Source: a virus (Duplodnaviria > Caudoviricetes). From it: a stretch of DNA of 64,000 bases. Within the stretch, counting starts at the first letter, position 1. Each line of letters starts with the position of its first letter. The stretch spans positions 47,672 to 111,671 of IMG/VR virus record IMGVR_UViG_3300046739_000039. One strand, written 5' to 3'. Below the pieces are notes generated by a model. The model did not search any database. It saw only the letters and a list, made by a program, of their open reading frames with translations, and was not told the DNA's origin. Shown one piece after another: positions 24,518-63,872 of this stretch. The position numbers and the translations under genes were made by a program.

Positions 24518-24889
24518 GTGCAGAAGACTGTTGCTAAGGCGTTTGCGTCGGTTGCTTTCATGGCCATGGCAGGATTCGGTGTTACCGCTTGCGGTAATGA
24601 CCCCGGTTATGTCGACAATGGTTATGACCAGGTGTGGGACCACGGACACTACGTGTACGTTCCTCACTCCTACTACCTCAGTCACAAGAGCCAGTACCGT
24701 AACAGTGCACATCCTGTGCGTCACCGTAGCAGCAGCTACGTCACTACGCACCACGTGAAGGTTACGCACCGTACTACCACCACCGTTAACAAGGATGGTT
24801 CTCGTACCACTACGCGTCACACCACCACTCGCCGTACTACTCGTAAGTCCAGCGGATTCGGTGGTAGCCGCAGTACTCGTCGTCGCTAG
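24518..24889 (+). CDS. Lipoprotein with His/Thr/Arg-rich basic tail
   Basis: Signal peptide with lipobox VTAC; AAGGAG RBS. Confidence 0.7.
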   Translation: MQKTVAKAFASVAFMAMAGFGVTACGNDPGYVDNGYDQVWDHGHYVYVPHSYYLSHKSQYRNSAHPVRHRSSSYVTTHHVKVTHRTTTTVNKDGSRTTTRHTTTRRTTRKSSGFGGSRSTRRR

Positions 24890-24938
24890 TACGCTTTAGT
24901 TCTTCTCCCCGAAAGGGGAGAGGTTCTATGGATTACTA
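24887..24938 (+). repeat. Stop-anchored hairpin element, copy 1
   Basis: TAG TAC GCTTTAG ttcttctcccc GAAA ggggagaggtt CTATGG atta CTA. Confidence 0.8.
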
Positions 24939-24950
24939 GAGAGGAAAAGA

Positions 24951-25244
24951 ATGGCATTCGTTACACGCAAGTTCACTGTAGAGGAGCTAGAGGAGAAGTA
25001 TGATCTCCCCTGGAATCCTATCTATGAGGAGACTATTGACAAGCGCCGTTGGTATTCTGTAGTTGAACTAGTATTCAAGGCTGACGATGGCCTCCATTAC
25101 ACGGTTTACTACATGGACCCGGCTACTGAAATGCAGGATGGGCAGGATCGTTGGGAAGATTCCCGAGGCTATGTTGAGGGTATTCAAGTAGAGCCTGTTG
25201 AAGTAGTAACCGTAAAGTGGGAGGCAGTTAAGTGTTTGAAGTAG
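24951..25244 (+). CDS. Hypothetical protein
   Basis: GAGGA RBS; RRW..V.ELVF; ATEMQ; VEPVEV. Confidence 0.7.
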   Translation: MAFVTRKFTVEELEEKYDLPWNPIYEETIDKRRWYSVVELVFKADDGLHYTVYYMDPATEMQDGQDRWEDSRGYVEGIQVEPVEVVTVKWEAVKCLK

Positions 25245-25495
25245 GACAGATTCTCACTAATGATTTTGAGGTCAGCCGCAATGCTGTAACCATTGAAATC
25301 AAGGCTACATGGATTGATGATGACGATGCAGAGGTTTATTACGTCGTTAAGTGCATCGATGTGGCGCGGGATCACGAGCACAACATGTTCAGCTCCTGGT
25401 ACTACGATGATGAAGTCGATCTGGTAAGTGAAGCGCACCTGGATAAGTACTACAACATTGTGGAAAGGAGTCAGACAGGTGAGAGTTCGTGTTGA
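25232..25495 (+). CDS. Hypothetical protein
   Basis: GGAGG + GTG. Confidence 0.6.
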   Translation: MFEVGQILTNDFEVSRNAVTIEIKATWIDDDDAEVYYVVKCIDVARDHEHNMFSSWYYDDEVDLVSEAHLDKYYNIVERSQTGESSC

Positions 25496-25652
25496 TTTCG
25501 AAATTCCTTCTCTTTATATTGATCTCACTCCTGCGCAGGTTGAAGCGCTTGATGACGAGTTCGATTGGCAGCCGTTTATTGACGCTACTTACAACGAACT
25601 TGAAAGTCACCTGATGGGTGAATTCGTTATCGATGATGTGGTTGAGTATTAA
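25479..25652 (+). CDS. Small acidic hypothetical protein
   Basis: AAGGAG + GTG 25479. Confidence 0.55.
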   Translation: MRVRVDFEIPSLYIDLTPAQVEALDDEFDWQPFIDATYNELESHLMGEFVIDDVVEY

Positions 25653-26059
25653 TGCCTTATAAACGACCACCTGCCCCAGAAGGTATGCATTGGTGTTTAG
25701 GCTGTAAAGACTTTAAGCCAGTGGATACCTTCTGGAAGCATAAAAAAGGTAATAATGGATTATGTGGTAGCTGTAAAGACTGCATGTCTAAGCAACATAG
25801 TTCAAACAGATCAGCAATGAGACATAGAGCTAAGAAAGTTTACGGACTTACATTAGAAGATTACGATGCGCTAAAGGCTCGTTCTAATTTTTGTCCATTG
25901 TGTAATTCAGCAGAAGAGTTACACCTAGATCATAATGATCAGACGGGTGTCGTACGCGAATTCATTTGTGGTAAGTGTAATAGAGGTCTAGGATTATTTA
26001 ATCATGATCCTGAATTGTTGCGTGCGGCTGCTAGGTATATGGAGGCACATAATCAATAG
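25652..26059 (+). CDS. Endonuclease VII-family (HNH-like) nuclease, probable homing endonuclease
   Basis: C..C; YGLT.EDY; CPLC; LHLDH...TG.VR..IC..CNRGLG; AT-rich codons vs flanks. Confidence 0.85.
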   Translation: MPYKRPPAPEGMHWCLGCKDFKPVDTFWKHKKGNNGLCGSCKDCMSKQHSSNRSAMRHRAKKVYGLTLEDYDALKARSNFCPLCNSAEELHLDHNDQTGVVREFICGKCNRGLGLFNHDPELLRAAARYMEAHNQ

Positions 26060-26429
26060 TTTTTATCATGCTCAGTCTGCTGCTCATAAATGGGGCGGGA
26101 CATGGGAAGATTACATGGAGATCGAATCTTTTATTGACTCGTCTAAGAAGACGTTTGGTGATTATCGTCATCGCGCTATGTACCATCACACCCTAGGTGT
26201 TTATCTGTGTGAGGATCTATTCGGTAAGACTATTTCTATCCAGAAGAACACCAAGACAATTCAAGTGCCTGTTCGTCTTATCGCAGAGCGGCACATTGTA
26301 GAGGATCTGGGATTCCTTCCTAGTCCTGAGCACTATCTAAAGCACATTCCCCATGACGACAACGCAACTCGTTGGATGTCCGGATCAATCCGTAAAGAGG
26401 TAGGAAACTTTAATGACGTCTTTAAATAA
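26052..26429 (+). CDS. DUF6915-like protein; probable ATC start
   Basis: HAQSAAHKWGG..EDY..I..FIDSSK..FGDYRHRA.YHHT.G; VPVR.IAE.HI.EDLG..PS; GGAGG 6 nt before ATC. Confidence 0.65.
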   Translation: MNSFYHAQSAAHKWGGTWEDYMEIESFIDSSKKTFGDYRHRAMYHHTLGVYLCEDLFGKTISIQKNTKTIQVPVRLIAERHIVEDLGFLPSPEHYLKHIPHDDNATRWMSGSIRKEVGNFNDVFK

Positions 26430-26904
26430 GGATGACAAGACCTTTATGGGCTTGCCCATTGAGGGTGACACAGGCTATCGTTGGGCGCGTACTCCGCAAG
26501 AGCCCGTTGAGAATCTGTACAACGATCTCAAGGCAGCCTTTGATGCTGGTGTAGTGGGTATTATGTGGGAACAGTACACGCCCGCCTGGAACGACGGAGA
26601 GGCTTGTGAGTTCTCCGTACGGGACCCCAAGGTGACAACCAATGCTATCGTTGCTGATGCATGGCTAGACGGTACTGAGCCTGACTTGTCTCTTGCCTAT
26701 CCCGAAGAGGATTTTGGTGAGTATGATGAGTACATGTACGAGCAGTGGAGCGACCACCCGGACGGTAAGCACGTAAACGACATCAGTGTTCCGGTAGATG
26801 CTGCTAAGTACGAGGATGCTCTACGTAGTAAGTTCGGAAACAACATCAAGGTCATTGTTACGCCTGGGCGCGTAGTAACAGAGGAATATGATTGCGGGTA
26901 CTAA
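26413..26904 (+). CDS. Hypothetical protein
   Basis: W.QYTP.WNDGEACEFSV motif; acidic. Confidence 0.7.
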   Translation: MTSLNKDDKTFMGLPIEGDTGYRWARTPQEPVENLYNDLKAAFDAGVVGIMWEQYTPAWNDGEACEFSVRDPKVTTNAIVADAWLDGTEPDLSLAYPEEDFGEYDEYMYEQWSDHPDGKHVNDISVPVDAAKYEDALRSKFGNNIKVIVTPGRVVTEEYDCGY

Positions 26905-27336
26905 TTGGCATCTGACCAAATCGAAAGATTTCTAAAGACATTTCCAGGTTCTCAAGTACCATTGCTCTTTGAGCAGATGAATATGGTGCAGGAGAAAGAG
27001 ACTGAGAAGTGGGATGCCAAGCCCTTTATCTTTCTGGTCGGTGGAAAAGAGAAAGAGTTCTTTTCCATCGGCCAGTTGGGTAAGGCCCTAGGTAGCAGGT
27101 CAGCAGTGACCTTGCGCAAGTGGGAGCGGGAGGGTATCCTACCTAAGTCCCCATACACCAAGCCCTCCGCAGATCCACGGGGTAGACGGAGAATGTACAC
27201 ACGTGCTATGGTTGAGGGACTAGTCAAGATCGCAAAGGAAGAGGGAGTATGGCTGCCAGACAAAGGAAAGCGCCTGTCGGAGACGATGTTTCAGCAGAAG
27301 GCACTGACACTGTTTCAGAACCTCTTGCAGACGTAG
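26905..27336 (+). CDS. MerR-like HTH DNA-binding protein
   Basis: FSIGQLGKALG.RSAVTLRKWEREGILP...RRMYT. Confidence 0.75.
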   Translation: MASDQIERFLKTFPGSQVPLLFEQMNMVQEKETEKWDAKPFIFLVGGKEKEFFSIGQLGKALGSRSAVTLRKWEREGILPKSPYTKPSADPRGRRRMYTRAMVEGLVKIAKEEGVWLPDKGKRLSETMFQQKALTLFQNLLQT

Positions 27337-27605
27337 TACCGCTGGACAAGATGACAGTCCTTCCGATTGGTGATACGCTTGAGATCACATACTCTCGTAG
27401 CTGGGACCTTGCGGTTGTCCAGTATGAGAAGATGTCACTCTTCACCAGCATTAAGAAGGTTGTACCTCTGGACGCTGATCTAGAGGCTGTAGGAACTGAG
27501 ATCTCTGATAGACTTAACGAGATTCAGGGAGCTGACCTTAGTTGGGCACGCTCCATGTGTACAAACCGGGGATCGCTTATTACTAAGATCATCCCCAACC
27601 CGTAA
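27249..27605 (+). CDS. Hypothetical protein (start uncertain: 27249 or 27351)
   Basis: Purine-rich RBS before 27249; 88-nt overlap with previous gene. Confidence 0.55.
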   Translation: MAARQRKAPVGDDVSAEGTDTVSEPLADVVPLDKMTVLPIGDTLEITYSRSWDLAVVQYEKMSLFTSIKKVVPLDADLEAVGTEISDRLNEIQGADLSWARSMCTNRGSLITKIIPNP

Positions 27606-27656
27606 TAACCCTTTCTAATATGCCTAAGTGCATTCTTATAAGGAGCTAATAAATAT

Positions 27657-28439
27657 ATGGCTAAGATTTCCCGTACTCGCGCCACCACTGATGTTGACAC
27701 GTCCAACATGGATGTTCCGCACGATGTAGAGCGTGAGGCTTACAACACTGAGAAGGAAGACGCTCCTTCTCGTCCCGCTCGCACGGCTACTTCCTCTGCC
27801 GTATCTTCTGGTTGGGGTGCCAAGCAGGAAGAGCGCACTGAGACTGTCAAGGCTCCGATTCTGAAGCTGAAGGACAACGGTACTCGTATCCTCAAGCTTC
27901 TCGATGCGGCTCCGCCTGTCAAGTACAAGCGTCACTACATCAACTCTAAGAAGCGTTACTACACCTGCCTCCGTGAGGAGTGCCCGCTGTGCGCTCTGAC
28001 TCCGCCTGCTGGTCGTAAGAAGCTCCGCGCTTCCTGGACCTTTGTCATGAATGTTGTTGACATGGCGGATGATCCCACCGAAGTTAAGACCTGGACCTTT
28101 GGAACTGAGGTTTCTTCTCAGCTCCAGCAGCTTGCCGAGGATAAGTCCGAAACTCCTGAGAAGGCAAAGACCTTCCTCAGTGACAGCGGTTCTTACTTTG
28201 AGGTAAAGCACATCAAGGTTGCTGGTCGTGAGGCTCCTGGTACTAACGTGGCGTTCCTTCGCTCCCGTTACCTGATTGAAGAGCACTCCCTTGAGCCTCT
28301 GAATGAGGAAGAGCTTTACGATCTCGAAGAGGAGAAGTTCGGACCTGAGGTTGTGTACGTCAACACCCTTGACTACCTTGAGGATGTGGCATCTGAAGTT
28401 CAGACCACTGACTTCCAGGTTGGTACCACCCGAAGCTAA
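27657..28439 (+). CDS. Single-stranded DNA-binding protein (gp32-like)
   Basis: H.....YTC....CPLC Zn site, MNVVD, acidic C-terminal region; upstream of DNA polymerase. Confidence 0.65.
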   Translation: MAKISRTRATTDVDTSNMDVPHDVEREAYNTEKEDAPSRPARTATSSAVSSGWGAKQEERTETVKAPILKLKDNGTRILKLLDAAPPVKYKRHYINSKKRYYTCLREECPLCALTPPAGRKKLRASWTFVMNVVDMADDPTEVKTWTFGTEVSSQLQQLAEDKSETPEKAKTFLSDSGSYFEVKHIKVAGREAPGTNVAFLRSRYLIEEHSLEPLNEEELYDLEEEKFGPEVVYVNTLDYLEDVASEVQTTDFQVGTTRS

Positions 28440-28442
28440 GGC

Positions 28443-28493
28443 TTGACCACTGAAGGCCCTGACTGGTAGATTACAACTCCAGTCAGGGCCTTT
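28443..28493 (+). promoter_or_regulatory. Promoter overlapping an inverted repeat/terminator
   Basis: TTGACC-N18-TAGATT; IR GAAGGCCCTGACTGG / CCAGTCAGGGCCTTT with -10 in the loop. Confidence 0.6.
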
Positions 28494-28510
28494 CTACTTA
28501 GGAGGACACA

Positions 28511-28768
28511 GTGCCCGAAGGTATTTGGATGATCAGGTACTACACCTATGATGGTTGTTCGCGCCATGATCAGCATGATGTACAGTTTGCCTGGGAGTAT
28601 GAGACTGCCAAGGGTAAGCTTGACGAATGGTATAAGAAGGGCAAGCTTGATGGCTTTGAGTGGGAGTTTGACGGTAAAAACGACCACATTCTCATAAAGC
28701 GAGAGGGTCAGTACGGATTCTCCTATTACTTCATCGAGTTCCTGGCACCTGGAGAGGATATTGATTAA
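28511..28768 (+). CDS. Hypothetical protein
   Basis: AGGAGG + GTG. Confidence 0.65.
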   Translation: MPEGIWMIRYYTYDGCSRHDQHDVQFAWEYETAKGKLDEWYKKGKLDGFEWEFDGKNDHILIKREGQYGFSYYFIEFLAPGEDID

Positions 28769-30807
28769 TGGAAGGCGTAATCCTTACAGCAGAACAGCTT
28801 AGGAAGGAAGTCGAATACTTCCTTAAGCAGGACGCTTTTTCTTTCGACGTTGAATCTATGAACGGTGCGCTGCCTAATACTCGTGCTGTTCCTACTCAGA
28901 ATAGCGTGGTATGGATTGCTCTTTCTACCTATGGTCGTACCATTGCTATTCCGATGGGACATCCTAATGGTGATGTACTTCTCCAGAAGGCATATCGTAA
29001 GAAAGATCCTGAGACAAAGAAGTTTGTCAGCTATCCCAATATCTATGACGAACCACCTGAGCAGCTAAAGCCTAGTGTGGTATTCGAAATTCTGCGTCCG
29101 TTGTTCTTCAATCCATTCATTACGAAAATTGCTCACAACGAGACGTTCGATGTTATCTCCATTGCTAAATACTACGACAAGATTATTCCTGGTCCTTTCC
29201 AGGATACGATTGTGCAACAGTGGCTGTTGGATGAGAACATTGGGCAGATGGCATCTGGACCTAAGCGTCCATTCGGTAAGGGTCTGAAGACTCTCATCAA
29301 GTGGTACTACGAGGTTGACTATGATAAGGATGACGTAGGTAAGTGCATTGAGGCTCACCCGTTCTCATCTATCGCCCGGTACATCATGCTTGACGCTAGG
29401 TATGACTGGATGCTGTGGAGGAAGTTCTCCCCGAAGCTCCAGGAAGAGGCTCTAGGGCCCATCTCAGCGCTTGAAAACCAGGTGACGGAAGTCTGTAGCC
29501 AGATGGGCATGATCGGCGCCCCTGTGGACGTACAGGCGATTGAGGAGCTGAAGGTAGACCTCACTCGCAGGCTGGAAGTCATCGAAGCAAAGATCTATCG
29601 TGCTGCTGGTAAAGTATTCAACATTAACTCCAATATTCAGAAGCGCGATATTCTATTCGGTAAGAAGAAAGACGGAGGGCAAGCACTAAAGCCTATTAAG
29701 TTCTCCAAGAAAACCGGAGACCCTTCTACTGACGCAGAAACTCTTGAGAAGTATGTTGGAAACCCTGTAGTGGATGCCCTCCTGGAATACCAGGAGATGT
29801 CTAAGATTCTCAATACATATGTCATCGGTTATATTGGTGATGAGGAGAATGGAAAACCCTGTCGTATCTTTGACGGGCGCATTCACACTGATCTGGTTCA
29901 GTACGGTACTGTTACTGGTCGATTCTCTTCAAGGGAACCGAACCTTCAGAACATTCCCAGACCTGATACAGATTTGGGTAAGAAGATCCGTGGTTTGTTC
30001 ATGGCTCCGGTAGGGTATAGACTTCTCGTAGCTGACTATGGTCAGATGGAGCTTCGTATTCTGGCATCCATGATTGGCTATGGTGGTCTGTACGATGGTT
30101 TCCAGGCAGGGATTGACGCGCACACTCAGACAGCAGCGCTTGTCTACGGTGTACCTGTTGAAGAGGTAGAGAAATGGCAGAGAAGTGTTGCCAAGACTCT
30201 GAACTTTGCTATTGTTTATGGTGCTCAGAAGGCAAAGATTGCAAAGACTCTTAACATCACTGTTGAAGAGGCTGAGGAACTGCTGGAGAATCACCGTAAT
30301 GCATTCCCTGAAATCTATAAGTTCAAGGATTACATTCTCAAGCTTGCCAAGGGTCGCAAGACTGACCCTCACGTTCGTACCCTCATGGGGCGCAAGCGTC
30401 GGGTGTGGGAAGTTCTTCCTGAGGTAGCACGCAAGGAAGCTTCACGTCTTGAGTGGTACGATCCTTCACAGCCGTGGAGGGCAGAGCGTTCCATCCTCGC
30501 ACGTGGTGAGCGTCAGGTTATCAACTCCCTGGTTCAGGGAAGCCTTGGCGATATCATCAAGCTTGCAATGGTACGGATGCATAGGCTACTATCAGAAGAT
30601 GCACTGAAGAATCCAGGTCGAGAGATCCATATGATTCTTTCGGTACACGATGAGCTTGTTATCCTCTGTCCTGAAGACAGAACAGAGGAAGGTTCAGCAA
30701 TGCTTAAGGAAGCTATGCTAGGTACTGAGGTTCAGGATCTTGTCAAGGTTCCTCTGGACGTTGGCGACGTCGTTGTCTGTCAGCGCTGGAGTGAGGCAAA
30801 GGAGTGA
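28768..30807 (+). CDS. polA: DNA polymerase, family A, with 3'-5' exonuclease
   Basis: FDVES, AHN..FD; TGRFSSREPNLQNIP; ADYGQMELR (A), R..AKTLNFAIVYG (B), VHDELV (C). Confidence 0.95.
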   Translation: MEGVILTAEQLRKEVEYFLKQDAFSFDVESMNGALPNTRAVPTQNSVVWIALSTYGRTIAIPMGHPNGDVLLQKAYRKKDPETKKFVSYPNIYDEPPEQLKPSVVFEILRPLFFNPFITKIAHNETFDVISIAKYYDKIIPGPFQDTIVQQWLLDENIGQMASGPKRPFGKGLKTLIKWYYEVDYDKDDVGKCIEAHPFSSIARYIMLDARYDWMLWRKFSPKLQEEALGPISALENQVTEVCSQMGMIGAPVDVQAIEELKVDLTRRLEVIEAKIYRAAGKVFNINSNIQKRDILFGKKKDGGQALKPIKFSKKTGDPSTDAETLEKYVGNPVVDALLEYQEMSKILNTYVIGYIGDEENGKPCRIFDGRIHTDLVQYGTVTGRFSSREPNLQNIPRPDTDLGKKIRGLFMAPVGYRLLVADYGQMELRILASMIGYGGLYDGFQAGIDAHTQTAALVYGVPVEEVEKWQRSVAKTLNFAIVYGAQKAKIAKTLNITVEEAEELLENHRNAFPEIYKFKDYILKLAKGRKTDPHVRTLMGRKRRVWEVLPEVARKEASRLEWYDPSQPWRAERSILARGERQVINSLVQGSLGDIIKLAMVRMHRLLSEDALKNPGREIHMILSVHDELVILCPEDRTEEGSAMLKEAMLGTEVQDLVKVPLDVGDVVVCQRWSEAKE

Positions 30808-30811
30808 CGAG

Positions 30812-30958
30812 ATGCATCGTCAACCAGCTAGCCCCAATAAACCCTGCAAGGTAACCATGAATGGCGCCCACCAATGGGCTAGTCTTAGAACTAGAGAGTG
30901 GCGTAAGAGCACGGTTACCATGTGTTGGATTTGCGGAGCTAGAAAAGCAAAGGAGTAA
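30812..30958 (+). CDS. Small hypothetical protein (C..H..CxxC)
   Basis: AAGGAG + ATG 30812. Confidence 0.45.
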   Translation: MHRQPASPNKPCKVTMNGAHQWASLRTREWRKSTVTMCWICGARKAKE

Positions 30959-30959
30959 T

Positions 30960-31403
30960 ATGTTAGATCCGTTTGAAGAGGTTTCGCCTGTCGCACCTAT
31001 GGACCCGTGGCAGGCGCTAACCACTGAGCTTTCCCGCTCAATGATGTGGGACATGATTGGTCCTACTCGCATGCACAATGAGCCGGTTAGGTATGGTCAA
31101 CAGCCTGCCAGTCCTGATGTCCTTGAGGCAGAGGGTAAAGAGATGTGGGCGCGCAAGCATTCCATGCTCCCCTTTGGTATGGACTTCTCTTTGCTGTGTT
31201 ATATGGCAGCGGAATCTGCATCCCTAGCACTGATAAAGAATGACGATACACTCAGCGAATTGCCTGATGAAGAAAAGCTCAAATTCAGGATTCATAATGT
31301 GAAATTGGGAACAGCTATTGCAGAAACAGTTGTCTCTCATATGCTACAAAAGGGACTAATACAATACGGAGAAGTAGATGAGTTTTTGGGCGAACAAACT
31401 TAA
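30960..31403 (+). CDS. Hypothetical protein
   Basis: AAGGAG + ATG 30960. Confidence 0.65.
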   Translation: MLDPFEEVSPVAPMDPWQALTTELSRSMMWDMIGPTRMHNEPVRYGQQPASPDVLEAEGKEMWARKHSMLPFGMDFSLLCYMAAESASLALIKNDDTLSELPDEEKLKFRIHNVKLGTAIAETVVSHMLQKGLIQYGEVDEFLGEQT

Positions 31404-31779: not shown

Positions 31780-31807
31780 ACCACTCATCCCAGCGGAGTA
31801 ATATAAC

Positions 31808-55639: not shown

Positions 55640-55990
55640 ATGACTAGTGCACACGGTAGCAATGGCAAGGCTGTCCCGGTACCTCAGCGGGTTATGGATA
55701 TCGTCACGGAAAAGGGAATTCCTTTCCGTGTCGCATATGGGAATCGCCCGTATGCCTCTGGTGAACTCGCGTCCTTCCCCACCGTGGCTTTCTACGACGC
55801 ACGGTTTACGATGAAGTCGCCCGTTCACGCACACGGTCAGTTCGTGTCAGATTACAGCGTTGAAACGCTGCTAGAGCGTCAGAGTGGTTGGCCGCTCACC
55901 CTTGACGGGGGCGTGTCCAACTGGGAGATTGACGCTAGTACCATGGCACTGGTTAAGATGTGGCTTGTTCATCTCTTCCTCGCTAAGTAG
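55640..55990 (+). CDS. Hypothetical protein
   Basis: V.FYD.R......HGQFVS.Y..ETLL......L.L.GGV..W.ID. Confidence 0.7.
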   Translation: MTSAHGSNGKAVPVPQRVMDIVTEKGIPFRVAYGNRPYASGELASFPTVAFYDARFTMKSPVHAHGQFVSDYSVETLLERQSGWPLTLDGGVSNWEIDASTMALVKMWLVHLFLAK

Positions 55991-56086
55991 TTCTAGCCTC
56001 CACTATCGTCTAGGGACTTGACAGTCCCTAGGCGGTAGGGTTCACTAGAGCCACACCAACCGCACTACCCACTAAGGGGTTTCACC

Positions 56087-56407: not shown

Positions 56408-57037
56408 GTGTCTGAGTTTAAGTCTATGTCGGTCGTTGTTCAGTCGCCTAAGACTTTCATTGAGCCTGTAAAGCTCTCGCCTCTCAAGAGTTTTTGGCAC
56501 CGTGTGACCGGTAAGGATGTTCCCACCGTGGAATTCCCCCACCTGCACACGCTTGAGCTTGACGACACGCATGATGCGAGTATGGTCGAAAACCTGTTTG
56601 ACCGGCTGGATATGGCGGAATACGAACTCGTTTCGCTCATTGTCAATGGGTACGACTTTACCGAGGAAATGGTAAAGCACGTGCATTACCTGTCGAATGT
56701 GCCTCTCTTCTTTGAAGCACTGATTAACGACTCGTATAGTGCGGATGTTATCTGCGCATTCATTACCGAAAGGGATTGCGCGGACGTTGATAACTGGATG
56801 GACCCTATCCATTTCTCTGGTTCCTCTCATGAGGAAGTGGTTACGGAATGGATGGAGGTCTTCCACAAGGTGTACACTCCGGTTTACCGTAGTTACCGGG
56901 ATGATGACTACGTGGAGACTGCCCCCGTTCCTTCCTGGATGACTGTAGACTGGGAAGACACGTTGGACAGTATTGCGAGGGATAATTCCTCCAGCGTGGT
57001 GGAGTTCGGAGGAATGGTTTACTTCTTCGGCGAGTAA
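56408..57037 (+). CDS. Acidic protein, possibly ArdA-like antirestriction/DNA mimic
   Basis: GGAGG + GTG; D/E-rich; C-terminal VP.W..VDWE.T....ARD....V...G.VYFF. Confidence 0.4.
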   Translation: MSEFKSMSVVVQSPKTFIEPVKLSPLKSFWHRVTGKDVPTVEFPHLHTLELDDTHDASMVENLFDRLDMAEYELVSLIVNGYDFTEEMVKHVHYLSNVPLFFEALINDSYSADVICAFITERDCADVDNWMDPIHFSGSSHEEVVTEWMEVFHKVYTPVYRSYRDDDYVETAPVPSWMTVDWEDTLDSIARDNSSSVVEFGGMVYFFGE

Positions 57038-57093
57038 TTACCCGCTTTAATCATTCGCCCCTTAATTGGGGCGGGTGGTTATGGCTGATAATT
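57035..57093 (+). repeat. Stop-anchored hairpin element, copy 3
   Basis: TAA TTACCC GCTTTAA tcattcgcccc...ggggcgggtgg TTATGG (G-C to A-U change; three G.U pairs). Confidence 0.75.
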
Positions 57094-57117
57094 CAGTCGG
57101 TAAAAGGAAGCGGAGTA

Positions 57118-57318
57118 ATGGAACACAATTACAAGGTACCTCACACGACGCGCCACGGTGGACGTCCCTATACGGACAGCATAGAGTGTCGCAAGTGCGT
57201 ACGGTGGCGAAAGTGGGATACGTTCGCTGTCTGGACCATGACTAGTTTCGTTATCTCTCTGGTAGTAGGCTATCCCTTGTGGATTGTCTTTATCGCATGG
57301 GTTTGTGGAGCGCTGTAA
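57118..57318 (+). CDS. Small membrane protein
   Basis: AAGGA RBS; hydrophobic C-terminus. Confidence 0.55.
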   Translation: MEHNYKVPHTTRHGGRPYTDSIECRKCVRWRKWDTFAVWTMTSFVISLVVGYPLWIVFIAWVCGAL

Positions 57319-57373
57319 TTGGTGGCTCTAGTCATTCTCCCTTTCATTAGGGAGAGTGGCTAAAGCTAGCAAT
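57316..57373 (+). repeat. Stop-anchored hairpin element, copy 4 (variant)
   Basis: TAA TTGGTG GCTCTAG tcattctccct...agggagagtgg CTAAAG c. Confidence 0.6.
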
Positions 57374-57413
57374 CGCTAGTGAGTACAGGGTTTGATGAAA
57401 GGCACAAAAAGTT

Positions 57414-57647
57414 ATGGCTATTGCTACGTATGAGAACCAGTCTCCTTCTGAGATCCGTACGGGTGATGTGGTTACCGATTCACTCGGCCGTACATTTATC
57501 GCGCTCTCGGATGCTGAGCTGGACATGGGAGATTTTCAGGTCCTGGGCATTACTGCTGAGGGTATTGAGAAGTGGTTTACCCTTGACACTAAGTCTGCCG
57601 TTGACATCTCTTACGATGAGTCCGTTTGGAATCAGGATGATATTTAA
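57414..57647 (+). CDS. Small acidic hypothetical protein
   Basis: GAAAGG RBS. Confidence 0.6.
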   Translation: MAIATYENQSPSEIRTGDVVTDSLGRTFIALSDAELDMGDFQVLGITAEGIEKWFTLDTKSAVDISYDESVWNQDDI

Positions 57648-57677
57648 TATCCTCTGCTGTAACTAACTGAATAGCTT

Positions 57678-57726
57678 AAAGGCCGATAGCCTCATTCTTC
57701 GCTAGAATGGGGTTGTCGGCTTTTTT
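57678..57726 (+). terminator. Intrinsic terminator of the rightward early arm
   Basis: GCCGATAGCCTCATTCT...AGAATGGGGTTGTCGGC TTTTTT. Confidence 0.75.
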
Positions 57727-57754
57727 GCGTTTTCAGCTATTCCATTGGAGAAAC

Positions 57755-57961
57755 ATGGATAACCAAACCCAGTCCGCAAAGTTATGGGACAGAAAGACTT
57801 ATATAAGCGCTGCCATTTCAGCCCTATTGGCTGCGGCTGTTGCTTGCACCGTGTGCGCCGTTCGCGGGGAGACCCTGGCTCTAGGTCAGTCCCCTGCCGC
57901 TAGCGTCTCAGATGGGCACACAGCTACCTCTACGGGCCTATGCCTGGCAGGTGGGAAGTAA
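57755..57961 (+). CDS. Small membrane/secreted protein
   Basis: GGAG + ATG 57755; hydrophobic ISAAISALLAAAVAC; TAATG coupling to next ORF. Confidence 0.45.
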   Translation: MDNQTQSAKLWDRKTYISAAISALLAAAVACTVCAVRGETLALGQSPAASVSDGHTATSTGLCLAGGK

Positions 57962-58125
57962 TGCCGTATGAGGTACGCAAAGTACGCGGAGGATACAAGG
58001 CAGCGCATAAGGGAGGCAAGACATACAGCAACCACCCGCAGAGCAAGGCAACGGCGCGCGCACAGGTACAGGCTATCGCCATCCATACACACGAGTTCAG
58101 CCATGGTGCGCAGAGCACCCGTTAA
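57961..58125 (+). CDS. Small basic protein (MPY.V.K..GGYK...A.AQ..A type)
   Basis: MPYEVRKVRGGYKAAHKGGKTYSNHPQSKATARAQVQAIAIH. Confidence 0.55.
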   Translation: MPYEVRKVRGGYKAAHKGGKTYSNHPQSKATARAQVQAIAIHTHEFSHGAQSTR

Positions 58126-58283
58126 GGGCCCTAGGCGCCTCTCTGACAGCCTCCCGTACCCCAGTTGGACACAGAGACCCGCACCACAAAGGATCTTGCT
58201 ACAGGGCCGTACAGAGCTTCTTTGTACCTGATACAAATCCTGTGTCGGCACGCCTTGCTGTGTCCCTGTCAAGTCAACACATA

Positions 58284-58330
58284 CGAAAAACCCCTAGCCT
58301 CTCAGCTATCGAGAGAACTAGGGGTTTTCG
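58284..58330 (-). terminator. Terminator of the leftward early arm (possibly bidirectional)
   Basis: CGAAAAACCCCTAG...CTAGGGGTTTTCG. Confidence 0.7.
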
Positions 58331-58368
58331 CTTTACAGGGGGATTGCTACTGCGCGCATTTCGTTCCC

Positions 58369-58566
58369 CTACTCGTGAAACAGAATCTTTCCATCCTTGA
58401 CGCAAATTGTCTTTGCGCTCTTGTCCACGTGTCCGTGAGCCATAGCGACACAATCCTTTTTGAACTGTTCGTTACGGCTCATAGGGTTAAGCACCAGAAC
58501 GGCCAGAGCCATTGACGACGCCACACCCATACACAAACCAAAAAGCATCGCTGCGGGAACTTCCAT
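58369..58566 (-). CDS. Small membrane-anchored protein
   Basis: GAAAGG RBS; N-terminal hydrophobic helix. Confidence 0.6.
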   Translation of the reverse strand: MEVPAAMLFGLCMGVASSMALAVLVLNPMSRNEQFKKDCVAMAHGHVDKSAKTICVKDGKILFHE

Positions 58567-58582
58567 GTTGGCTTTTCCTTTC

Positions 58583-58643
58583 AGTTAGAAAGCCATAGAG
58601 AAAGCCACTCTTTCGAATGGCTATCCCTAAAGCACGCTAACTA
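58583..58643 (-). repeat. Stop-anchored hairpin element, copy 5
   Basis: TAG T TAG CGT GCTTTAG ggatagccattc GAAA gagtggctttct CTATGG cttt CTA. Confidence 0.8.
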
Positions 58644-59228
58644 GCGACCGACAGCAAACCGCATGAGGGAGAATTCATCTCCCTGTGTGACGCTCTGGAA
58701 GTGCTCCAGAACCTGAAGAGTCCAGACGTTACCAGGACCACGGACAGCCTTAGCAATGGCGCACGTGTTGTGATTGCTGAGAAGAGAAGGCCAGATATCG
58801 GCCACCTGCTCAGAAGTTCCGCCCGTAGCGTCATAAACCTTAAAGGAAATGTTGCGTGCCCTCTGGAAAGAAGAACCCTTCTTAAAGGCACTTGCAACGA
58901 AAACCACGGAGGTAACCGGATTGGGAATCTTACCGAAATCGAGAGTAACCGTCTCGTCGTCACCCTCACCGTGACCAGTCTGGTTATCGCCACTGTGAAC
59001 CATAGAGCCATTGCCCAGGGGATCGAGAGAATCCAGACCAGCAAGACGCACGGGATTCTCACCACTCATAGCAATTGCAATCAGGTCAAGATCCGTGCCA
59101 GCCTTCTTCTTAATCTTGCCAAGCAAGCCACCCGATGCACCCGCAGTAGTGTCCCACGAAACGCCAATCTGAAGATGCGTAACGCCGTCAAGATCGGCAG
59201 CGTCCATGTCCTTCGTAAGCGTAATCAT
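58641..59228 (-). CDS. TerD/TerZ-family stress-response protein
   Basis: G.SWD; DLDL.A; HSGDNQTG.GEGDDE...LD...IP. Confidence 0.88.
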   Translation of the reverse strand: MITLTKDMDAADLDGVTHLQIGVSWDTTAGASGGLLGKIKKKAGTDLDLIAIAMSGENPVRLAGLDSLDPLGNGSMVHSGDNQTGHGEGDDETVTLDFGKIPNPVTSVVFVASAFKKGSSFQRARNISFKVYDATGGTSEQVADIWPSLLSNHNTCAIAKAVRGPGNVWTLQVLEHFQSVTQGDEFSLMRFAVGR

Positions 59229-59249
59229 TATTGCTTTTCTCCATTCGGT

Positions 59250-59303
59250 TAGTGGACCATAGAGACTATCGGAATTATTCCCGATAATCCCTAAAGCACA
59301 CTA
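59250..59303 (-). repeat. Stop-anchored hairpin element, copy 6
   Basis: TAG TGT GCTTTAG ggattatcgg...ccgatagtct CTATGG tcca CTA. Confidence 0.8.
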
Positions 59304-59465
59304 CTTACTGAAAGTCTTTACCGCGAGATAACCAACGCCGCCCAGCGCAAGAAATCCAAGTACCCATGCAATTGCGAGAATTACCTTACCCAGGAATGCA
59401 AGGATCGTTCCCAAAATGAAAAGCAGGATAACAGCTCCGACAATTCCAGCAATCATCTTAGACAT
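59301..59465 (-). CDS. 54-aa two-helix membrane protein (not in track)
   Basis: GAAAGGG RBS; MSKMIAGIVGAVILLFILGTILAFLGKVILAIAWVLGFLALGGVGYLAVKTFSK. Confidence 0.65.
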   Translation of the reverse strand: MSKMIAGIVGAVILLFILGTILAFLGKVILAIAWVLGFLALGGVGYLAVKTFSK

Positions 59466-59527
59466 TTCTTATGCCCTTTCTAGTTGGGAGGGAAAGACTC
59501 CCCTTTCGGGGAGCCTAACCCACTCGA

Positions 59528-60385
59528 CTAGAACGGAGCGTCAGCAGACTGGTTATGCAGCACTGCATTTACCTGCCGCATCCAGTAATCCCGCGCGCTC
59601 TGAGTAATGGCCGTGTGTGCCAGGTCCCAGATATTAGGGTTAACACCCTTGGGGCACGGCTCCACACTTTCAGGCTCATCGAGAGCAAGACCATTCTTGA
59701 GAATGGAACTCTCATAAACCATGTCGCCAGTCTCAGCGTCAATGAACTGATCAAGGCCCTTGATCTCCGGGAGAGGCTTAGGCGCCACCTTAACCGTGAT
59801 CGTTTCCTCCGCGATGAGCTTTTCCCCCTTGGCAGCGTCCAACTCCCTACGGGGCCCCTTAGGGTCGGTCTCAGGGTCAACGGGAACCGTGACCTTAGTC
59901 CCGTCCGCAGCAATCACGGGAATCTCAGCGGGGGTGATCTCAGAATCAAGATCATCGTACGAAACCTCAGCAGGCTTACCCGTGAATTCCGGGGCCTGTG
60001 AAAGGTCCATGTCCTGAGACTCAGCAACACGCGCCGCGTACGCCGTACGATCCGCGTAATCCTGTTCCTTAGCAGTGAGCTTCTTAGGCTCCGCCTTAAC
60101 GGTCGGGACAACTCCGTCAAGCGCATTCCGCGCGATATTCACCGCATTCTCTGCGCTGATATCCGGAACGATGATCCACACGTTACCGCGCTCGAACTCC
60201 ACCAGTTCGGCATCCGCAAGAATTCCGAGGAGATCAAACGCATTCTCTCCGATTTCATCGCTCATTTCCTGAACGGTAACCGGCGCTTCCTCGCTTGCCT
60301 CAAACTCCACCAGAGTGGAGAACAGACCGACAAGCTTGGCAGTGTCAACGGCCGGAACGTCATTCTTCGTGCCGCGCTTAGCCAT
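59528..60385 (-). CDS. Acidic hypothetical protein (possible N-terminal winged helix)
   Basis: GAAAGGA RBS; own promoter. Confidence 0.7.
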   Translation of the reverse strand: MAKRGTKNDVPAVDTAKLVGLFSTLVEFEASEEAPVTVQEMSDEIGENAFDLLGILADAELVEFERGNVWIIVPDISAENAVNIARNALDGVVPTVKAEPKKLTAKEQDYADRTAYAARVAESQDMDLSQAPEFTGKPAEVSYDDLDSEITPAEIPVIAADGTKVTVPVDPETDPKGPRRELDAAKGEKLIAEETITVKVAPKPLPEIKGLDQFIDAETGDMVYESSILKNGLALDEPESVEPCPKGVNPNIWDLAHTAITQSARDYWMRQVNAVLHNQSADAPF

Positions 60386-60422
60386 TGTGCTTTCCTTTCG
60401 TTCGGTTCCTCCGTTAGGAACC

Positions 60423-60485
60423 TGATAGGGAAGAACTTACCGGAGCAAGTTCTACCCTGTCAAGCCACCAACTCAAGATCTTTTA
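60423..60485 (-). promoter_or_regulatory. Early promoter within an inverted repeat, with upstream 12-mer
   Basis: TAAAAGATCTTG-N10-TTGACA (60458-60463)-N18-TAAGTT; IR 60423-60438 / 60447-60462. Confidence 0.65.
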
Positions 60486-61157
60486 CAGCTCACACGGTCC
60501 GCCACAATGACCGCAGAAATCCTCTTCCGGCTCTTCCTCGTACGGGTCTCCGCAGATGTTGCACCACTCGTCACCACACCCGTAAGACTCCCTGTAACCG
60601 TATTCGTCGTAATAGTCATTCGGCCATTCGACTACGGTTTCACCTACCGTGTAGACACTCGGGATGATATCCGAATCAACGTCATCCGTGTTGTCATAGA
60701 ACCACTGTGCGACCGTTTCAGCGTCGTACGCGCTCCGTTCCTCCATCAACTCTTCCAGAGCCTCAGAGCGCCACTGAACGCGTTCCTTACGGCGGATCTC
60801 CCTACGGTGCCCCGATCCCTTGTCTCCTTCGTCCGCGTACCTGTGGGGCAGGATACGGGAGTTTGCGGAGACTCCGGAGCCGTTCACGTACTTGCGTCGC
60901 GCTCCGTCGCGAAGACCGGAGACCGGAACACCCTTTTCCGTCGCGTGACGGAGCTTCGGGCGGTTGTAACGGTACTCGTTCGGCATGGCCTTGAGAAACG
61001 CGTTCCACAACTTCATCGCGGACACGTAGCGGTAGTATGCCTCGTACCATTCCGACAGGTGCGGGTACTCCCGGTATTCGGGCCAACGCGGCTTTTCCAT
61101 CCGCTCACCCGTCAGACGGTTGAAGGCGGTAACACCCGTTCGCGTGATCCGGTACAT
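60483..61157 (-). CDS. Hypothetical protein (basic core, acidic Cys-rich C-terminus)
   Basis: GGAAGGA RBS; own promoter. Confidence 0.65.
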   Translation of the reverse strand: MYRITRTGVTAFNRLTGERMEKPRWPEYREYPHLSEWYEAYYRYVSAMKLWNAFLKAMPNEYRYNRPKLRHATEKGVPVSGLRDGARRKYVNGSGVSANSRILPHRYADEGDKGSGHRREIRRKERVQWRSEALEELMEERSAYDAETVAQWFYDNTDDVDSDIIPSVYTVGETVVEWPNDYYDEYGYRESYGCGDEWCNICGDPYEEEPEEDFCGHCGGPCEL

Positions 61158-61193
61158 ACTGTGTTCCTTCCTGCTGTCCTTCTTACAAGTCCT

Positions 61194-61256
61194 AATCTAG
61201 TGGACACCCCCGCACCCTGTCAACAGGTTCTAGCAAGATCTTTTAGACAGGGTGCG
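61194..61256 (-). promoter_or_regulatory. Early promoter with upstream 12-mer and flanking inverted repeat
   Basis: TAAAAGATCTTG-N10-TTGACA (61218-61223)-N18-TAGATT; IR CGCACCCTGTC / GACAGGGTGCG. Confidence 0.7.
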
Positions 61257-61270
61257 AGAGAATCAACTAG

Positions 61271-61762
61271 CTAATCCTCGTAAACGTCGTACAGGTCTGA
61301 ATCGAAATCGTCGTAATACGGAGTGTCAATATCCCTACGCTCGTATTCCAATTCCTCTTCCTCCCGGTCAAGGAAATCGGAGTATTCACCTGAAAGGTCA
61401 TTCCATTCGTCCCATGCCCGATATACATCACTGTAAATCGTGGCATTTACAAAGCCCTGAGAGTCATATCCAACAATTGCGTTGAAATCCTCAAAGAACT
61501 CGTAATAACCGAATGTTTCTGAGTCACCTGCACATTCCGTGGCGAATCCCAGAATACCGAGGACGGAAAGGATTTCCGCTTCAAGAGAGTTGTACTTGTG
61601 TCCGTGGTAATTCTCCGAACTCATCGGGGAATGCACGTGAAACACAAACCCATTACCCTTCGCGTCAAGGCTGAACGAGCGGCCGTGAAGATCACGCCAC
61701 ATGTTCCCCTTGAACTCCAGAAACTCCGTGCACGTAGCGCAGATACCGTAATGGTCAAGCAT
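61271..61762 (-). CDS. Acidic hypothetical protein
   Basis: GAAAGG RBS; D/E/Y-rich C-terminus. Confidence 0.65.
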   Translation of the reverse strand: MLDHYGICATCTEFLEFKGNMWRDLHGRSFSLDAKGNGFVFHVHSPMSSENYHGHKYNSLEAEILSVLGILGFATECAGDSETFGYYEFFEDFNAIVGYDSQGFVNATIYSDVYRAWDEWNDLSGEYSDFLDREEEELEYERRDIDTPYYDDFDSDLYDVYED

Positions 61763-61778
61763 TGTAACGCCTTTCAGC

Positions 61779-61832
61779 TAGGGGACTATAACCGATATCA
61801 CTAACAAAAGTGATATCGATTAAAGCTCACTA
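61779..61832 (-). repeat. Stop-anchored hairpin element, copy 7
   Basis: TAG TGA GCTTTAA tcgatatcac...gtgatatcgg TTATAG tccc CTA. Confidence 0.75.
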
Positions 61833-62042
61833 GAAAACCAGCGTTCCCAACCACCAGAGAATACCCACGGGAACCCCGATGATGATAGCGGACGCAATCA
61901 GGATTGCGCCGAAGCAACCACCTACGGCAAGGACCGTTGCGAGTGGTCCAGCGTCCCCGTAACCGTCCTCCAAAACGGACGTCATACGATATCCGAGTGA
62001 AACATCCTTACGAGTGCCCGGAAGGCGTGCCCAGTTAGGCAT
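61830..62042 (-). CDS. Small membrane protein
   Basis: GAAAGGA RBS; hydrophobic C-half. Confidence 0.6.
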   Translation of the reverse strand: MPNWARLPGTRKDVSLGYRMTSVLEDGYGDAGPLATVLAVGGCFGAILIASAIIIGVPVGILWWLGTLVF

Positions 62043-62059
62043 TTTAGGTTCCTTTCAAC

Positions 62060-62115
62060 TAGGTAACCATACCCGACGCTATCCGTTTAGAGATAGCGTC
62101 GAATAAAACTAACTA
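62060..62115 (-). repeat. Stop-anchored hairpin element, copy 8
   Basis: TAG TTA GTTTTAT tcgacgctatc...gatagcgtcgg GTATGG ttac CTA. Confidence 0.75.
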
Positions 62116-62580
62116 GTTGAACTTATTCGGCTTCACGACGTGAACAGAAAGAATGTTCGGGTACCAAGAAAGGAAATGGTTACGGATTCCGCGAACGTGG
62201 AAAACGTACGTCTTACCCTTCTTAATCTCACTGTATACGTCCGAAGAATCCCACTTCCCATTAACCAGGGAATCCGAATTCTCAAAAACTCCCTTATTTG
62301 TGAAGATAAGGTAAGTGGAAGAATTACCGTCATTCTTCACCACCTTATCCGTAACCGTAGCGGTAACGTCCTTAGTGGGATTCAGTGCCTCATAGGCACC
62401 ATACACACCAGCACTGAGCACAGCAACGGCGGAGAGTGCCACGATACCGCAACCAAGCTGAGTGGAGCGATGAGAGCGGCGGGGGTAGCTGGGACGTGCG
62501 TTGTAACGAGTGGTCGGGATACTCGCCGCAATCTGCGCGGGGGTTTCCTTACGCATGTTCGGCTTGTTGTCCTGAACCAT
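62113..62580 (-). CDS. Membrane-anchored protein (DUF1523-like)
   Basis: TM helix then TVTDK; YLIFT..GVFEN.DS...GK.DSSD.Y..IK.GKTY.F.V.G.R..FLS.YPNI. Confidence 0.6.
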   Translation of the reverse strand: MVQDNKPNMRKETPAQIAASIPTTRYNARPSYPRRSHRSTQLGCGIVALSAVAVLSAGVYGAYEALNPTKDVTATVTDKVVKNDGNSSTYLIFTNKGVFENSDSLVNGKWDSSDVYSEIKKGKTYVFHVRGIRNHFLSWYPNILSVHVVKPNKFN

Positions 62581-62619
62581 GTTTTACACTCCTGTTTTCG
62601 TGGGTTAGGTTCCTAGGTC

Positions 62620-62673
62620 TAGGTAACCATAGCCACTAGGGGAAGTCAATTCCCCTAGGACTAAAGCTAACTA
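62620..62673 (-). repeat. Stop-anchored hairpin element, copy 9
   Basis: TAG TTA GCTTTAG tcctaggggaa ttgac ttcccctagtgg CTATGG ttac CTA. Confidence 0.8.
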
Positions 62674-62874
62674 GAGCATTCCGGCACGCTGAGCAGTCTT
62701 GCGCATGATAACGCGCGTCTCACCCTTGACCGTAGAGGCGTACTGGAGCGCCGCACGCTTGCTCAGCGGCAGGTACTGCCCGAATACCACCCGCTCACCC
62801 TTAGACGTAGCCTGAACGGTCACGTAGTGGTTCGGACGAACGAGCGTGAACGGTGCGTTCATGAGAATCTGCAT
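62671..62874 (-). CDS. Small basic hypothetical protein
   Basis: AAAGGA RBS. Confidence 0.6.
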   Translation of the reverse strand: MQILMNAPFTLVRPNHYVTVQATSKGERVVFGQYLPLSKRAALQYASTVKGETRVIMRKTAQRAGML

Positions 62875-62888
62875 TTCTGAATTCCTTT

Positions 62889-63089
62889 TCAGTAAGCGTT
62901 GTTGTGAACGGTCATGCCGTTAGCTTTAGCGGTATTCACCACTCGCACATCACCTGTGTGCGTAGTAAAGGTGATGAATTCCTGTTGCACGAATGCTTTA
63001 CGCATTTCTACGCCAGTCTTTTCGGAATCGACGTGAAATGTTACCTCAGTGCCGTTATCCATGTGAAAGATAACCGTTGCGGAAGCCAT
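62889..63089 (-). CDS. Small hypothetical protein
   Basis: GAAAGG RBS. Confidence 0.6.
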   Translation of the reverse strand: MASATVIFHMDNGTEVTFHVDSEKTGVEMRKAFVQQEFITFTTHTGDVRVVNTAKANGMTVHNNAY

Positions 63090-63148
63090 TGTCTAGCCTT
63101 TCCAGGGGGAGCCTGTACGACTCTACAGGCTCCCCCGTGACGTGTCTG

Positions 63149-63415
63149 TCAGACGTTGGCCAGGAGCGACGCACGGACGTCCCTACGGACCCTTGCAGCG
63201 CCGCGCATGAGGCTTTCGAAAAGCTCAGCGTGAGCGGCAGTCATACGCGTCACACCAACAGGGCTCACGTCGGGACGCGCGTTGGTGTCGTAGTCGTCCG
63301 CGTAGTTCTCGCCGTAGGTGGCAGTCATCCGAGCATGCATGAGCTGAACGGCCTTCCGGTACTGCTGAACGCGTCGGTCGTTGGCAATGGCGAGACGAAT
63401 CTGAAGCTCGGTCAT
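63149..63415 (-). CDS. Hypothetical protein
   Basis: GAAAGG RBS; promoter upstream. Confidence 0.6.
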   Translation of the reverse strand: MTELQIRLAIANDRRVQQYRKAVQLMHARMTATYGENYADDYDTNARPDVSPVGVTRMTAAHAELFESLMRGAARVRRDVRASLLANV

Positions 63416-63462
63416 GGTACTAGCCTTTCGGTCTGTCTTGCTGCTGTCTGGCTTGCTAGGAC

Positions 63463-63503
63463 TAGCTAACCATCCCCGTTCCCCCGTGTCAAGCGGGGGA
63501 GCG
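63463..63503 (-). promoter_or_regulatory. Early promoter with -35 in the loop of an inverted repeat
   Basis: CGCTCCCCCG-cTTGACA-CGGGGGAACG; N18-TAGCTA. Confidence 0.5.
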
Positions 63504-63514
63504 AGAAAAGTTCT

Positions 63515-63784
63515 CTAGATCTTTACGATACGTCCGGAAGAGAGATTAGCGTACTTGTCACCCTCACGCGTTACGACGCGGTATGTCATACCCACATTCG
63601 CGACATAATCCGTGCCGTAAATGCGCCCGTGAACAATCTTTGCGTCTGTGTCGTCGGAAAGCAAGACAGCCACGGAATTACCGATATCAAAACCGGTAGG
63701 CATAGAGGCTTCCTTGAGCATATCGAAATGCTCAATAGTGCGGAAATACTCGGTAGCTTCGGTTTCAGTAGAAGTCTTGGCCAT
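63515..63784 (-). CDS. Hypothetical protein
   Basis: Purine-rich RBS before ATG 63784. Confidence 0.6.
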   Translation of the reverse strand: MAKTSTETEATEYFRTIEHFDMLKEASMPTGFDIGNSVAVLLSDDTDAKIVHGRIYGTDYVANVGMTYRVVTREGDKYANLSSGRIVKI

Positions 63785-63817
63785 TTCCCTATTTCCTCTC
63801 ATTAAGCTAGCTGGGAT

Positions 63818-63872
63818 TAGCTAACCATAGCCACACTAGGAAATCAATTCCTAGAATGACTAAAGCTGTCTA
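63818..63872 (-). repeat. Stop-anchored hairpin element, copy 10
   Basis: TAG ACA GCTTTAG tcattctaggaa ttgat ttcctagtgtgg CTATGG ttag CTA. Confidence 0.8.

Follow-up and report, generated by a model that had tools for sequence, protein, structure and literature searches.

The stretch of DNA analysed here (the window, 64,000 nucleotides) covers positions 47672-111671 of an uncultured-virus record of 111,671 bp and carries repeated copies of an intergenic hairpin that begins on the stop codon of the gene upstream of it. These copies belong to a real and previously undescribed hairpin family, which is specific to the BRock-like lineage of Streptomyces myophages (cluster BS, Borockvirus type). 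The family-A DNA polymerase of the phage is ~61% identical to those of the Streptomyces phages BRock, Alone3, LuckySocke, GiJojo and pSt2308, which have been placed in cluster BS/Borockvirus as myoviruses of 112-116 kb (PMC7453282, PMC11465772); neither of these two genome announcements mentions intergenic hairpins. An initial annotation of the window had proposed a family of ten elements. All ten are present at the positions and on the strands assigned to them and were recovered by a covariance model, while an eleventh and a weak twelfth copy had been overlooked. The copies, a variant that follows the same plan and, for contrast, the terminator between the two arms are listed below, with covariance-model scores in bits.

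24887-24938 (+): e1, after an open reading frame (ORF) of 123 amino acids (aa; stop TAG at 24887-24889) and before a 97-aa ORF starting at 24951; 61.6 bits; all relatives retain the orthologous site
55988-56054 (+): weak twelfth member, 20.8 bits (E 0.006), with a stop TAG at 55988-55990 in the helix base, a degenerate conserved core and TTGACA in the loop
56324-56378 (+): e2, after a 79-aa ORF and before the ArdA-like gene 56408-57037
57035-57093 (+): e3, with a stop TAA 6 nt ahead of the core, paired with UUA
57316-57373 (+): e4, with a stop TAA and the helix segment GUCAUUC/GAGUGGC that is also found in T7 R1.1
57678-57733 (no strand assigned): canonical terminator, not a member of the family, a 20-bp hairpin followed by a T-run where the plus and minus arms converge
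58583-58643 (-): e5, downstream of the TerD-domain gene 58641-59228
59250-59303 (-): e6, downstream of a 54-aa ORF without homologue in the related arms compared
59480-59531 (-): core-less variant with the same CTAG...CTAG plan and no GCUUUAG/CUAUGG core; the stop TAG lies within the 5' CTAG, followed by a GAAA loop, the 3' CTAG and a ribosome-binding site (RBS)
61779-61832 (-): e7, the top model score (69 bits), with an orthologue directly after gene A in the relatives G003 and G004
62060-62115 (-): e8, bordering cassette C (61830-62042)
62620-62673 (-): e9, with a TTGACT loop, bordering cassette B (62113-62580)
63456-63522 (-): e11, 44.4 bits, with the core CUUUUCU/GGGAUGG and TTGACA in the loop
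63818-63872 (-): e10, the 5' part of which is the crossover point of a one-cassette indel relative to G003 and G004

As had been described, each element lies on the sense strand and starts with the stop codon of the upstream co-oriented ORF; the next start follows 12-40 nt past its end. Further details of the initial annotation were reproduced as well: in seven of its ten copies the stop is located exactly 3 nt ahead of the core, the U.U mismatch is kept in nine and the neighbouring U.G in eight, and in copy 2 a C-G pair is replaced by A-U. Apart from the family, a strong GC-rich hairpin of 13 bp follows the gene 63149-63415 at 63095-63140 (-); it is not stop-anchored and does not belong to the family.

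The exact core GCTTTAG-N18-42-CTATGG occurs five times in the window, compared to 0.07 occurrences expected by chance. The covariance model, which was built from the ten aligned copies, recovered all of them at 62-69 bits and detected no copies in the first 47 kb of the genome. It matched all five GenBank relatives with 4-5 hits each at E <= 0.1, some of which are reverse-strand echoes of the same site, as well as five complete IMG/VR genomes with 7-10 copies apiece and 17 further metagenome loci with 24 matches. Altogether, roughly two dozen or more genomes and contigs of phages carry the family. The analyses below refer to 71 non-redundant copies from the window genome, the GenBank relatives and the IMG/VR records, and the 24 metagenome matches were counted separately. 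A search of the window against Rfam at gathering thresholds matched no family, and at E<=1 it returned only two sub-threshold look-alikes of microRNA precursors. The elements are kept in relatives and correspond to no Rfam family. A near-identity DNA search of a phage collection with 8 kb of the arms as query gave zero matches. In 185,579 species genomes, the strict family pattern was found in two contigs of bacterial metagenome-assembled genomes only, both of which fail the model. Pattern-only matches in 15 metagenome loci were also rejected. None of these strict-pattern matches passes the model or adopts the fold of the family, and they therefore represent chance or an unrelated recurrent sequence.

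Folded jointly with RNAalifold, the ten copies form a single 24-bp hairpin with compensatory changes in 19 pairs. Across 76 distinct alignment rows, 91.7% of the cells hold standard pairs compared to 63.9% in shuffles, and the covariation score reaches 0.729 compared to 0.209 in shuffles and at most 0.22 in slid controls; within the main helix (24 modelled pairs), 93.8% of the cells are paired. As the 76-row alignment was fitted to the covariance model, these pairing statistics lean towards structure. Independent support for the structure comes from the site orthologous to e1, at which flanks and core are kept in at least 13 genomes while the upper stems have turned over and are unrelated in sequence but paired. 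The proposal of a covarying RNA structure conserved in relatives is thus supported. Moreover, the hairpin is a sense-strand RNA structure. Its orientation is that of the flanking genes in both convergent arms, G.U combinations outnumber A.C combinations by 271 to 40, and 151 of the 873 pairs of the upper hairpin are G.U. Overall, G.U makes up 16% of the pairs, with a strand bias that always runs along the direction of transcription in both arms. Tetraloops close 46 of the 71 copies, and 28 of these are GNRA loops.

The helix is ~24-26 bp long and has a lower and middle part with the consensus UAG-N3-GCUUUAG paired with CUAUGG-N4-CUA, in which a U x U mismatch is fixed and U.G wobbles occur. 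At its base, (C)UAG, which contains the stop codon, pairs with CUA(G) and is followed by three variable and partly paired positions. Above these, G-C-U pairs with G-G-Y, and then the U x U mismatch follows, which is kept in 69 of the 71 copies. The U.G adjoining the mismatch is present in 67 of the 76 rows, and the neighbouring pairs covary freely. The next pairs are U-A, A-U and G-C, a U.G at position +4 (55/71 copies), C-G and finally the stem of variable sequence, which has a pyrimidine-purine wobble (U.G or the isosteric C.A) at position +7 above the mismatch in 33 of the 71 copies. Measured from the G-C pair above the mismatch, the upper hairpin is 12 +/- 1 bp long in 52/71 copies. The two UAG/CUA boxes are 10 nt apart, which equals one helical turn. 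This conserved core of mismatch and wobbles points to recognition of the folded RNA. In L042 (IMGVR_UViG_3300027653_000014, 59 kb), a more GC-rich relative, three copies read UGA/UCA in place of UAG/CUA in the second box, so that an otherwise conserved core contains a double compensatory change.

To describe the anchoring to the stop codon, the longest ORF ending near each of the 71 copies was scored. In 53 copies the stop coincides exactly with the modelled position, in 15 it lies 3-7 nt upstream of it and in three it is far off; 68 of the 71 copies thus have their stop within 7 nt of that position. Among the 53 exactly anchored stops, 47 are TAG, compared to 26% of the stops in 99 long ORFs genome-wide. 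Stop codon and 3' partner covary for all three stops (UAG/CUA, UAA/UUA and UGA/UCA). Anchoring was confirmed by the independent annotation of Alone3 for four of five copies, the exception being the ArdA-like gene, which ends 20 nt ahead of its element. Across the family, all next starts are located 12-48 nt downstream, and the sequence after the helix is a purine-rich RBS: a Shine-Dalgarno-like motif lies 0-8 nt past the helix in 38 of 68 copies, and in the other 30 the RBS is 10-36 nt away. The position of the stop inside the helix, where it covaries with its partner, is consistent with a coupling to translation termination. Most of the preference for a purine after CUA is accounted for by pairing with the base that precedes the stop. 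A mini-ORF in the 3' arm (AUG-N6-UAR) was rejected as a by-product, because its AUG is the conserved A69-U70-G71 and its stop mirrors the paired upstream stop. Recoding or suppression of the stop codon was rejected as well, since the 29 tRNAs of the phage genome include no suppressor and since TAA and TGA copies occur.

The gene located between e2 and e3 (56408-57037, +) encodes a distant homologue (~27% identity) of the ArdA-like antirestriction protein gp201 of Alone3, which suggests that the element-bearing arms are early-gene arms. In the minus-strand arm, the gene for the TerD-domain protein (58641-59228) is a cassette gene bordered by elements. Of ten arm-region proteins compared with Pfam, TerD alone was matched and the other nine remained without family. 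The record stops within a minus-strand ORF (63870-64000). Hence, the contig end is arbitrary and the minus-strand arm probably extends further; the equivalent arm in Alone3 reaches the right physical end of the genome.

Breakpoints of gene gain and loss coincide with the elements. G003 and G004 lack exactly the segment that consists of the rest of e10 and the gene 63515-63802, and in their single element at this site the 5' flank of e10 is fused to the body of e11, and the crossover lies within TAG-N3-(G)CTTT. At a second site, the gene order in G003 and G004 is A-e7'-D', compared to A-e9-B-e8-C-e7-D in the window phage. Among the related arms compared, genes B and C were found in G001 only, and none of these arms contains a homologue of the cassette genes 57118-57318, 59301-59465 and 62889-63089. 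The two indel junctions on elements and the patchy distribution of cassette genes are in line with the earlier suggestion that the shared ends serve as shuffling points.

A U-tract follows the hairpin in none of the copies. The canonical U-tract terminator of the phage has a 20-bp stem and is situated where the arms meet (57678-57733), with a strong T-run on the plus strand and a short one on the minus strand. In view of this contrast, the elements do not resemble ordinary terminators, as the initial annotation had argued. A consensus scan placed promoters elsewhere in the arm and detected none in any element. About a dozen copies, which are mostly the upstream-most in each arm, contain a -35-like YTTGAC(A/T) in or at the loop. 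In the window, these are 62620-62673 (-), 63456-63522 (-), 63818-63872 (-) and 55988-56054 (+), and in relatives L016, L018, L019, L024, L046:1064, L048:1216 and L056:1311. The loop motif is conserved across differing stems and is often accompanied by CTAG-N-CCTAG or CTAGTC right after the helix. A canonical promoter in these loops was considered and rejected, as the TTGAC is separated by 12 nt from the sole TAnnnT and by 22-23 nt from the basal TAG, and both spacings are unusable. Two longer gaps of the minus-strand arm contain promoter-like sequences of their own, TTGACA-N18-TAGATT at 61194-61223 (-) and TTGACA-N18-TAAGTT at 60434-60463 (-). They have the upstream sequence AAAGATCTTG and the sequence TTGACAGGGT in common, and each of them lies within a long hairpin that again has the upstream stop codon in its base.

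We propose with moderate confidence that the hairpin acts as a post-transcriptional punctuation mark, which is cut by the host RNase III or blocks 3'-exonucleases and whose conserved ends double as recombination joints. Each element fills the gap between two co-oriented small genes, presumably in a polycistronic message, and the host RNase III would cut within the mismatch-bearing conserved helix. As its minimum role, the hairpin would block 3'-5' exonucleases. By either route, every single-gene unit would retain a protective 3' hairpin, as at the early RNase III sites of T7, and the conserved ends would provide short patches of homology for the deletion, insertion or swap of single-gene cassettes. 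That the hairpins cause cleavage or protection, which enzyme acts on them and that they function early is what we infer from the observations above. Neither an RNase III nor a double-stranded RNA-binding domain (dsRBD) was found in the phage genome, and any cutting would therefore be carried out by the host enzyme.

The RNAs on which Escherichia coli RNase III acts usually comprise two helical turns, internal loops restrict the enzyme to a single-strand cut that leaves a protective 3' hairpin, and a helix of at least 11 bp is needed between cut and loop; three boxes specify the site, namely the distal (UA, UG), the middle and the proximal one (GC, W, AU, W) (PMC1540722). The family shows an RNase III-like geometry: its helix exceeds two turns, a non-Watson-Crick site is located at the centre and the upper stem measures ~12 bp. 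As with T7-type signals, the elements are located between co-oriented ORFs (all 12 window copies), presumably on one shared transcript, and the U x U flanked by U.G is, at the structural level only, a T7-type internal mismatch feature. When the T7 intergenic regions were folded, the R1.1 hairpin agreed with the published numbering (A9:U30, U12:G27, GCAA loop; PMC1540722). The segment GUCAUUC/GAGUGGC of e4 agrees at 14/14 positions with the R1.1 segment that runs from the distal to the middle box, three other copies agree at 13/14, and the plurality consensus of the family is this same segment. Judged by its sequence, the family hairpin thus bears a suggestive resemblance to R1.1, which does not amount to membership. 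Between e4 (57316-57373, +) and T7 5859-5896 (L061), a 7-bp segment including both U.G wobbles is common; the T7 variant GUCGCUC recurs in the family, and the 3' arm continues with UAUG-R-UU in both phages.

Several points weigh against processing by RNase III. If the distal box is placed in register, the proximal box reads A-U, U-A, U x U, U.G and does not fit, and with the proximal box in register the distal box is 1 bp out. In addition, UA/UG steps occur in only about 35-40% of the copies. The box consensus is that of the E. coli enzyme, and the rules may differ in the host considered here, an actinobacterium. The conservation also exceeds the known needs of RNase III, so that a dedicated reader protein would fit at least as well, and the stop anchoring goes beyond what processing alone explains. 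Finally, the strict pattern lacks genuine matches in bacterial genomes, and thus the element mimics no host site.

It is therefore conceivable, although we consider it unlikely, that a dedicated protein of phage or host binds the mismatch-bearing base and acts there as an operator of translation or as a coupling device. With the helix starting at the stop, a terminating ribosome would melt just the conserved 13-nt 5' arm, and binding or cutting would then depend on translation of the upstream gene. The nearly invariant U x U and adjacent U.G among freely covarying neighbours, the two UAG/CUA boxes one helical turn apart, the covariation of the stop with its partner and the confinement of the motif to the phage lineage all fit such a reader, as does the Shine-Dalgarno motif within 8 nt of the helix base in more than half of the scored copies, which would make stop and next start adjacent in space. 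However, the more distant RBS of the remaining 30 copies fits less well, a repeated site between unrelated genes would be unusual for an operator, and no candidate reader emerged, as Pfam was blank for nine arm proteins and no dsRBD was found. We regard it as distinctly improbable that the elements are intrinsic terminators or attenuators without U-tract, with the TTGAC-loop subset forming cassettes of terminator and promoter that resemble the promoter-early stem-loops (PeSLs) of other phages, so that each cassette would be its own transcription unit. Ingham, Hunter and Smith reportedly described U-less terminators in the early region of phage phiC31 in 1995, and stable GC-rich hairpins directly after stops (z-scores of -4.7 to -6.0) and the roughly 12 copies with TTGAC(A/T) in the loop could be read in the same way. 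PeSLs furthermore join stem-loops with early promoters and undergo the same kind of cassette shuffling (PMC2839356, PMC4122927). Yet no copy has a U-tract, and mycobacterial RNA polymerase is described as requiring one for termination (PMC3993855). Seven elements lie within 5.4 kb, and together with the short distances to the next start this leaves no room for restart promoters. The TTGAC spacings are unusable and the consensus scan puts the promoters elsewhere, and termination does not need conserved non-Watson-Crick pairs.

Least of all do we expect the elements to act at the level of DNA, that is, as recombination or mobility sites folded in single-stranded DNA, such as integron attC or the repetitive extragenic palindromic (REP) sequences with their REP-associated tyrosine transposases (RAYTs), or as selfish palindromic repeats, with the RNA fold being a by-product. 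The conserved ends, the variable palindromic centre, one gene per unit, a single orientation and the breakpoints on elements are attC-like, and relatives contain several HNH and endonuclease VII genes. On the other hand, searches of the 111.7-kb genome returned no match to tyrosine recombinases or integrases (PF00589, E<=1) and none to Y1 (HUH) transposases (PF01797). The 16% of G.U pairs and the strand bias along transcription in both arms also oppose a role of the DNA fold, as do the enrichment of GNRA loops and the orthologous copies that stay in place while their upper stems turn over. The breakpoints can be explained by general homologous recombination, as has been proposed for PeSLs. The ends pair as inverted and not as direct repeats (TGA...TCA, TAA...TTA) and therefore are not target-site duplications; for this reason, the duplication left by a miniature inverted-repeat transposable element was rejected, too.

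Beyond the punctuation mark itself, it may be speculated that the hairpin is a translation-gated switch, in which each termination event opens the conserved helix while the variable upper hairpin stays, although we think this quite improbable. The segment that starts with the first stop-codon base and ends with GCUUUAG measures 13 nt, which is about the stretch that a terminating ribosome holds unwound; the conserved helix alone would thus be opened. If so, the double-stranded target would be hidden from RNase III or a dedicated reader during translation of the upstream gene, and the 3' arm would be freed as a landing pad beside the next RBS. This would tie the survival of the message and the initiation downstream to upstream translation, in an element that also delimits one-gene cassettes.

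Repeated hairpins between early phage genes are already known from the RNase III sites of T7 and the PeSLs of T4-type phages. Two features go beyond these textbook cases: the upstream stop lies within the helix and, whichever of the three stop codons is used, covaries with its partner, and the core of mismatch and wobbles is conserved. Cultured relatives are available, with S. lividans as the host of Alone3 and LuckySocke and different hosts for BRock and GiJojo, and so are Streptomyces mutants in RNase III (rnc/absB). The reader of the marks and a possible gating by translation are therefore directly testable. The element furthermore represents a concrete route for the swapping of accessory genes among these phages and can be used in practice by annotators as a marker of gene boundaries.

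The poly-U-less terminators of phiC31 resemble the family in that they are stable hairpins, lack U-tails and come from a Streptomyces phage, where they lie in the early region, but by their description they are individual terminators and not a stop-anchored family with conserved sequence. REP sequences are conserved imperfect palindromes located after stop codons within operons and can protect upstream mRNA from 3' exonucleases. The family hairpins are likewise intercistronic palindromes just past stop codons. However, REP sequences are chromosomal, conserved over their full length and tied to RAYT transposases, whereas the upper stem of the family is free to vary and the phage has no Y1 transposase gene.

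The early RNase III signals of T7 (R0.3, R0.5, R1, R1.1 and R1.3) are also repeated sense-strand hairpins between early or accessory genes; they span about two helical turns, have a non-Watson-Crick site at the centre and lack a U-tract. In both phages an antirestriction gene is among the genes flanked, and the T7 copies, too, have sequence in common with one another. In contrast to this, there is no overall sequence homology between the T7 signals and the family hairpin and no Rfam family that would connect them. The T7 signals contain a large asymmetric internal loop, whereas the family helix is nearly continuous (1x1 U x U), begins on a stop codon that covaries with its partner and has a box spacing that departs from the E. 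coli consensus. The PeSLs of T4-type phages are repeated intergenic motifs of stem-loop and early promoter that are defined from the upstream stop and cluster among small orphan genes, where they mediate cassette shuffling as crossover points for insertion, deletion and replacement (PMC2839356, PMC4122927), similar to what is seen for the elements described here. However, a PeSL combines a strong sigma-70-type promoter with a terminator stem-loop, while the family elements contain no promoter of usable spacing and what is conserved in them is the helix base itself, including its fixed mismatches.

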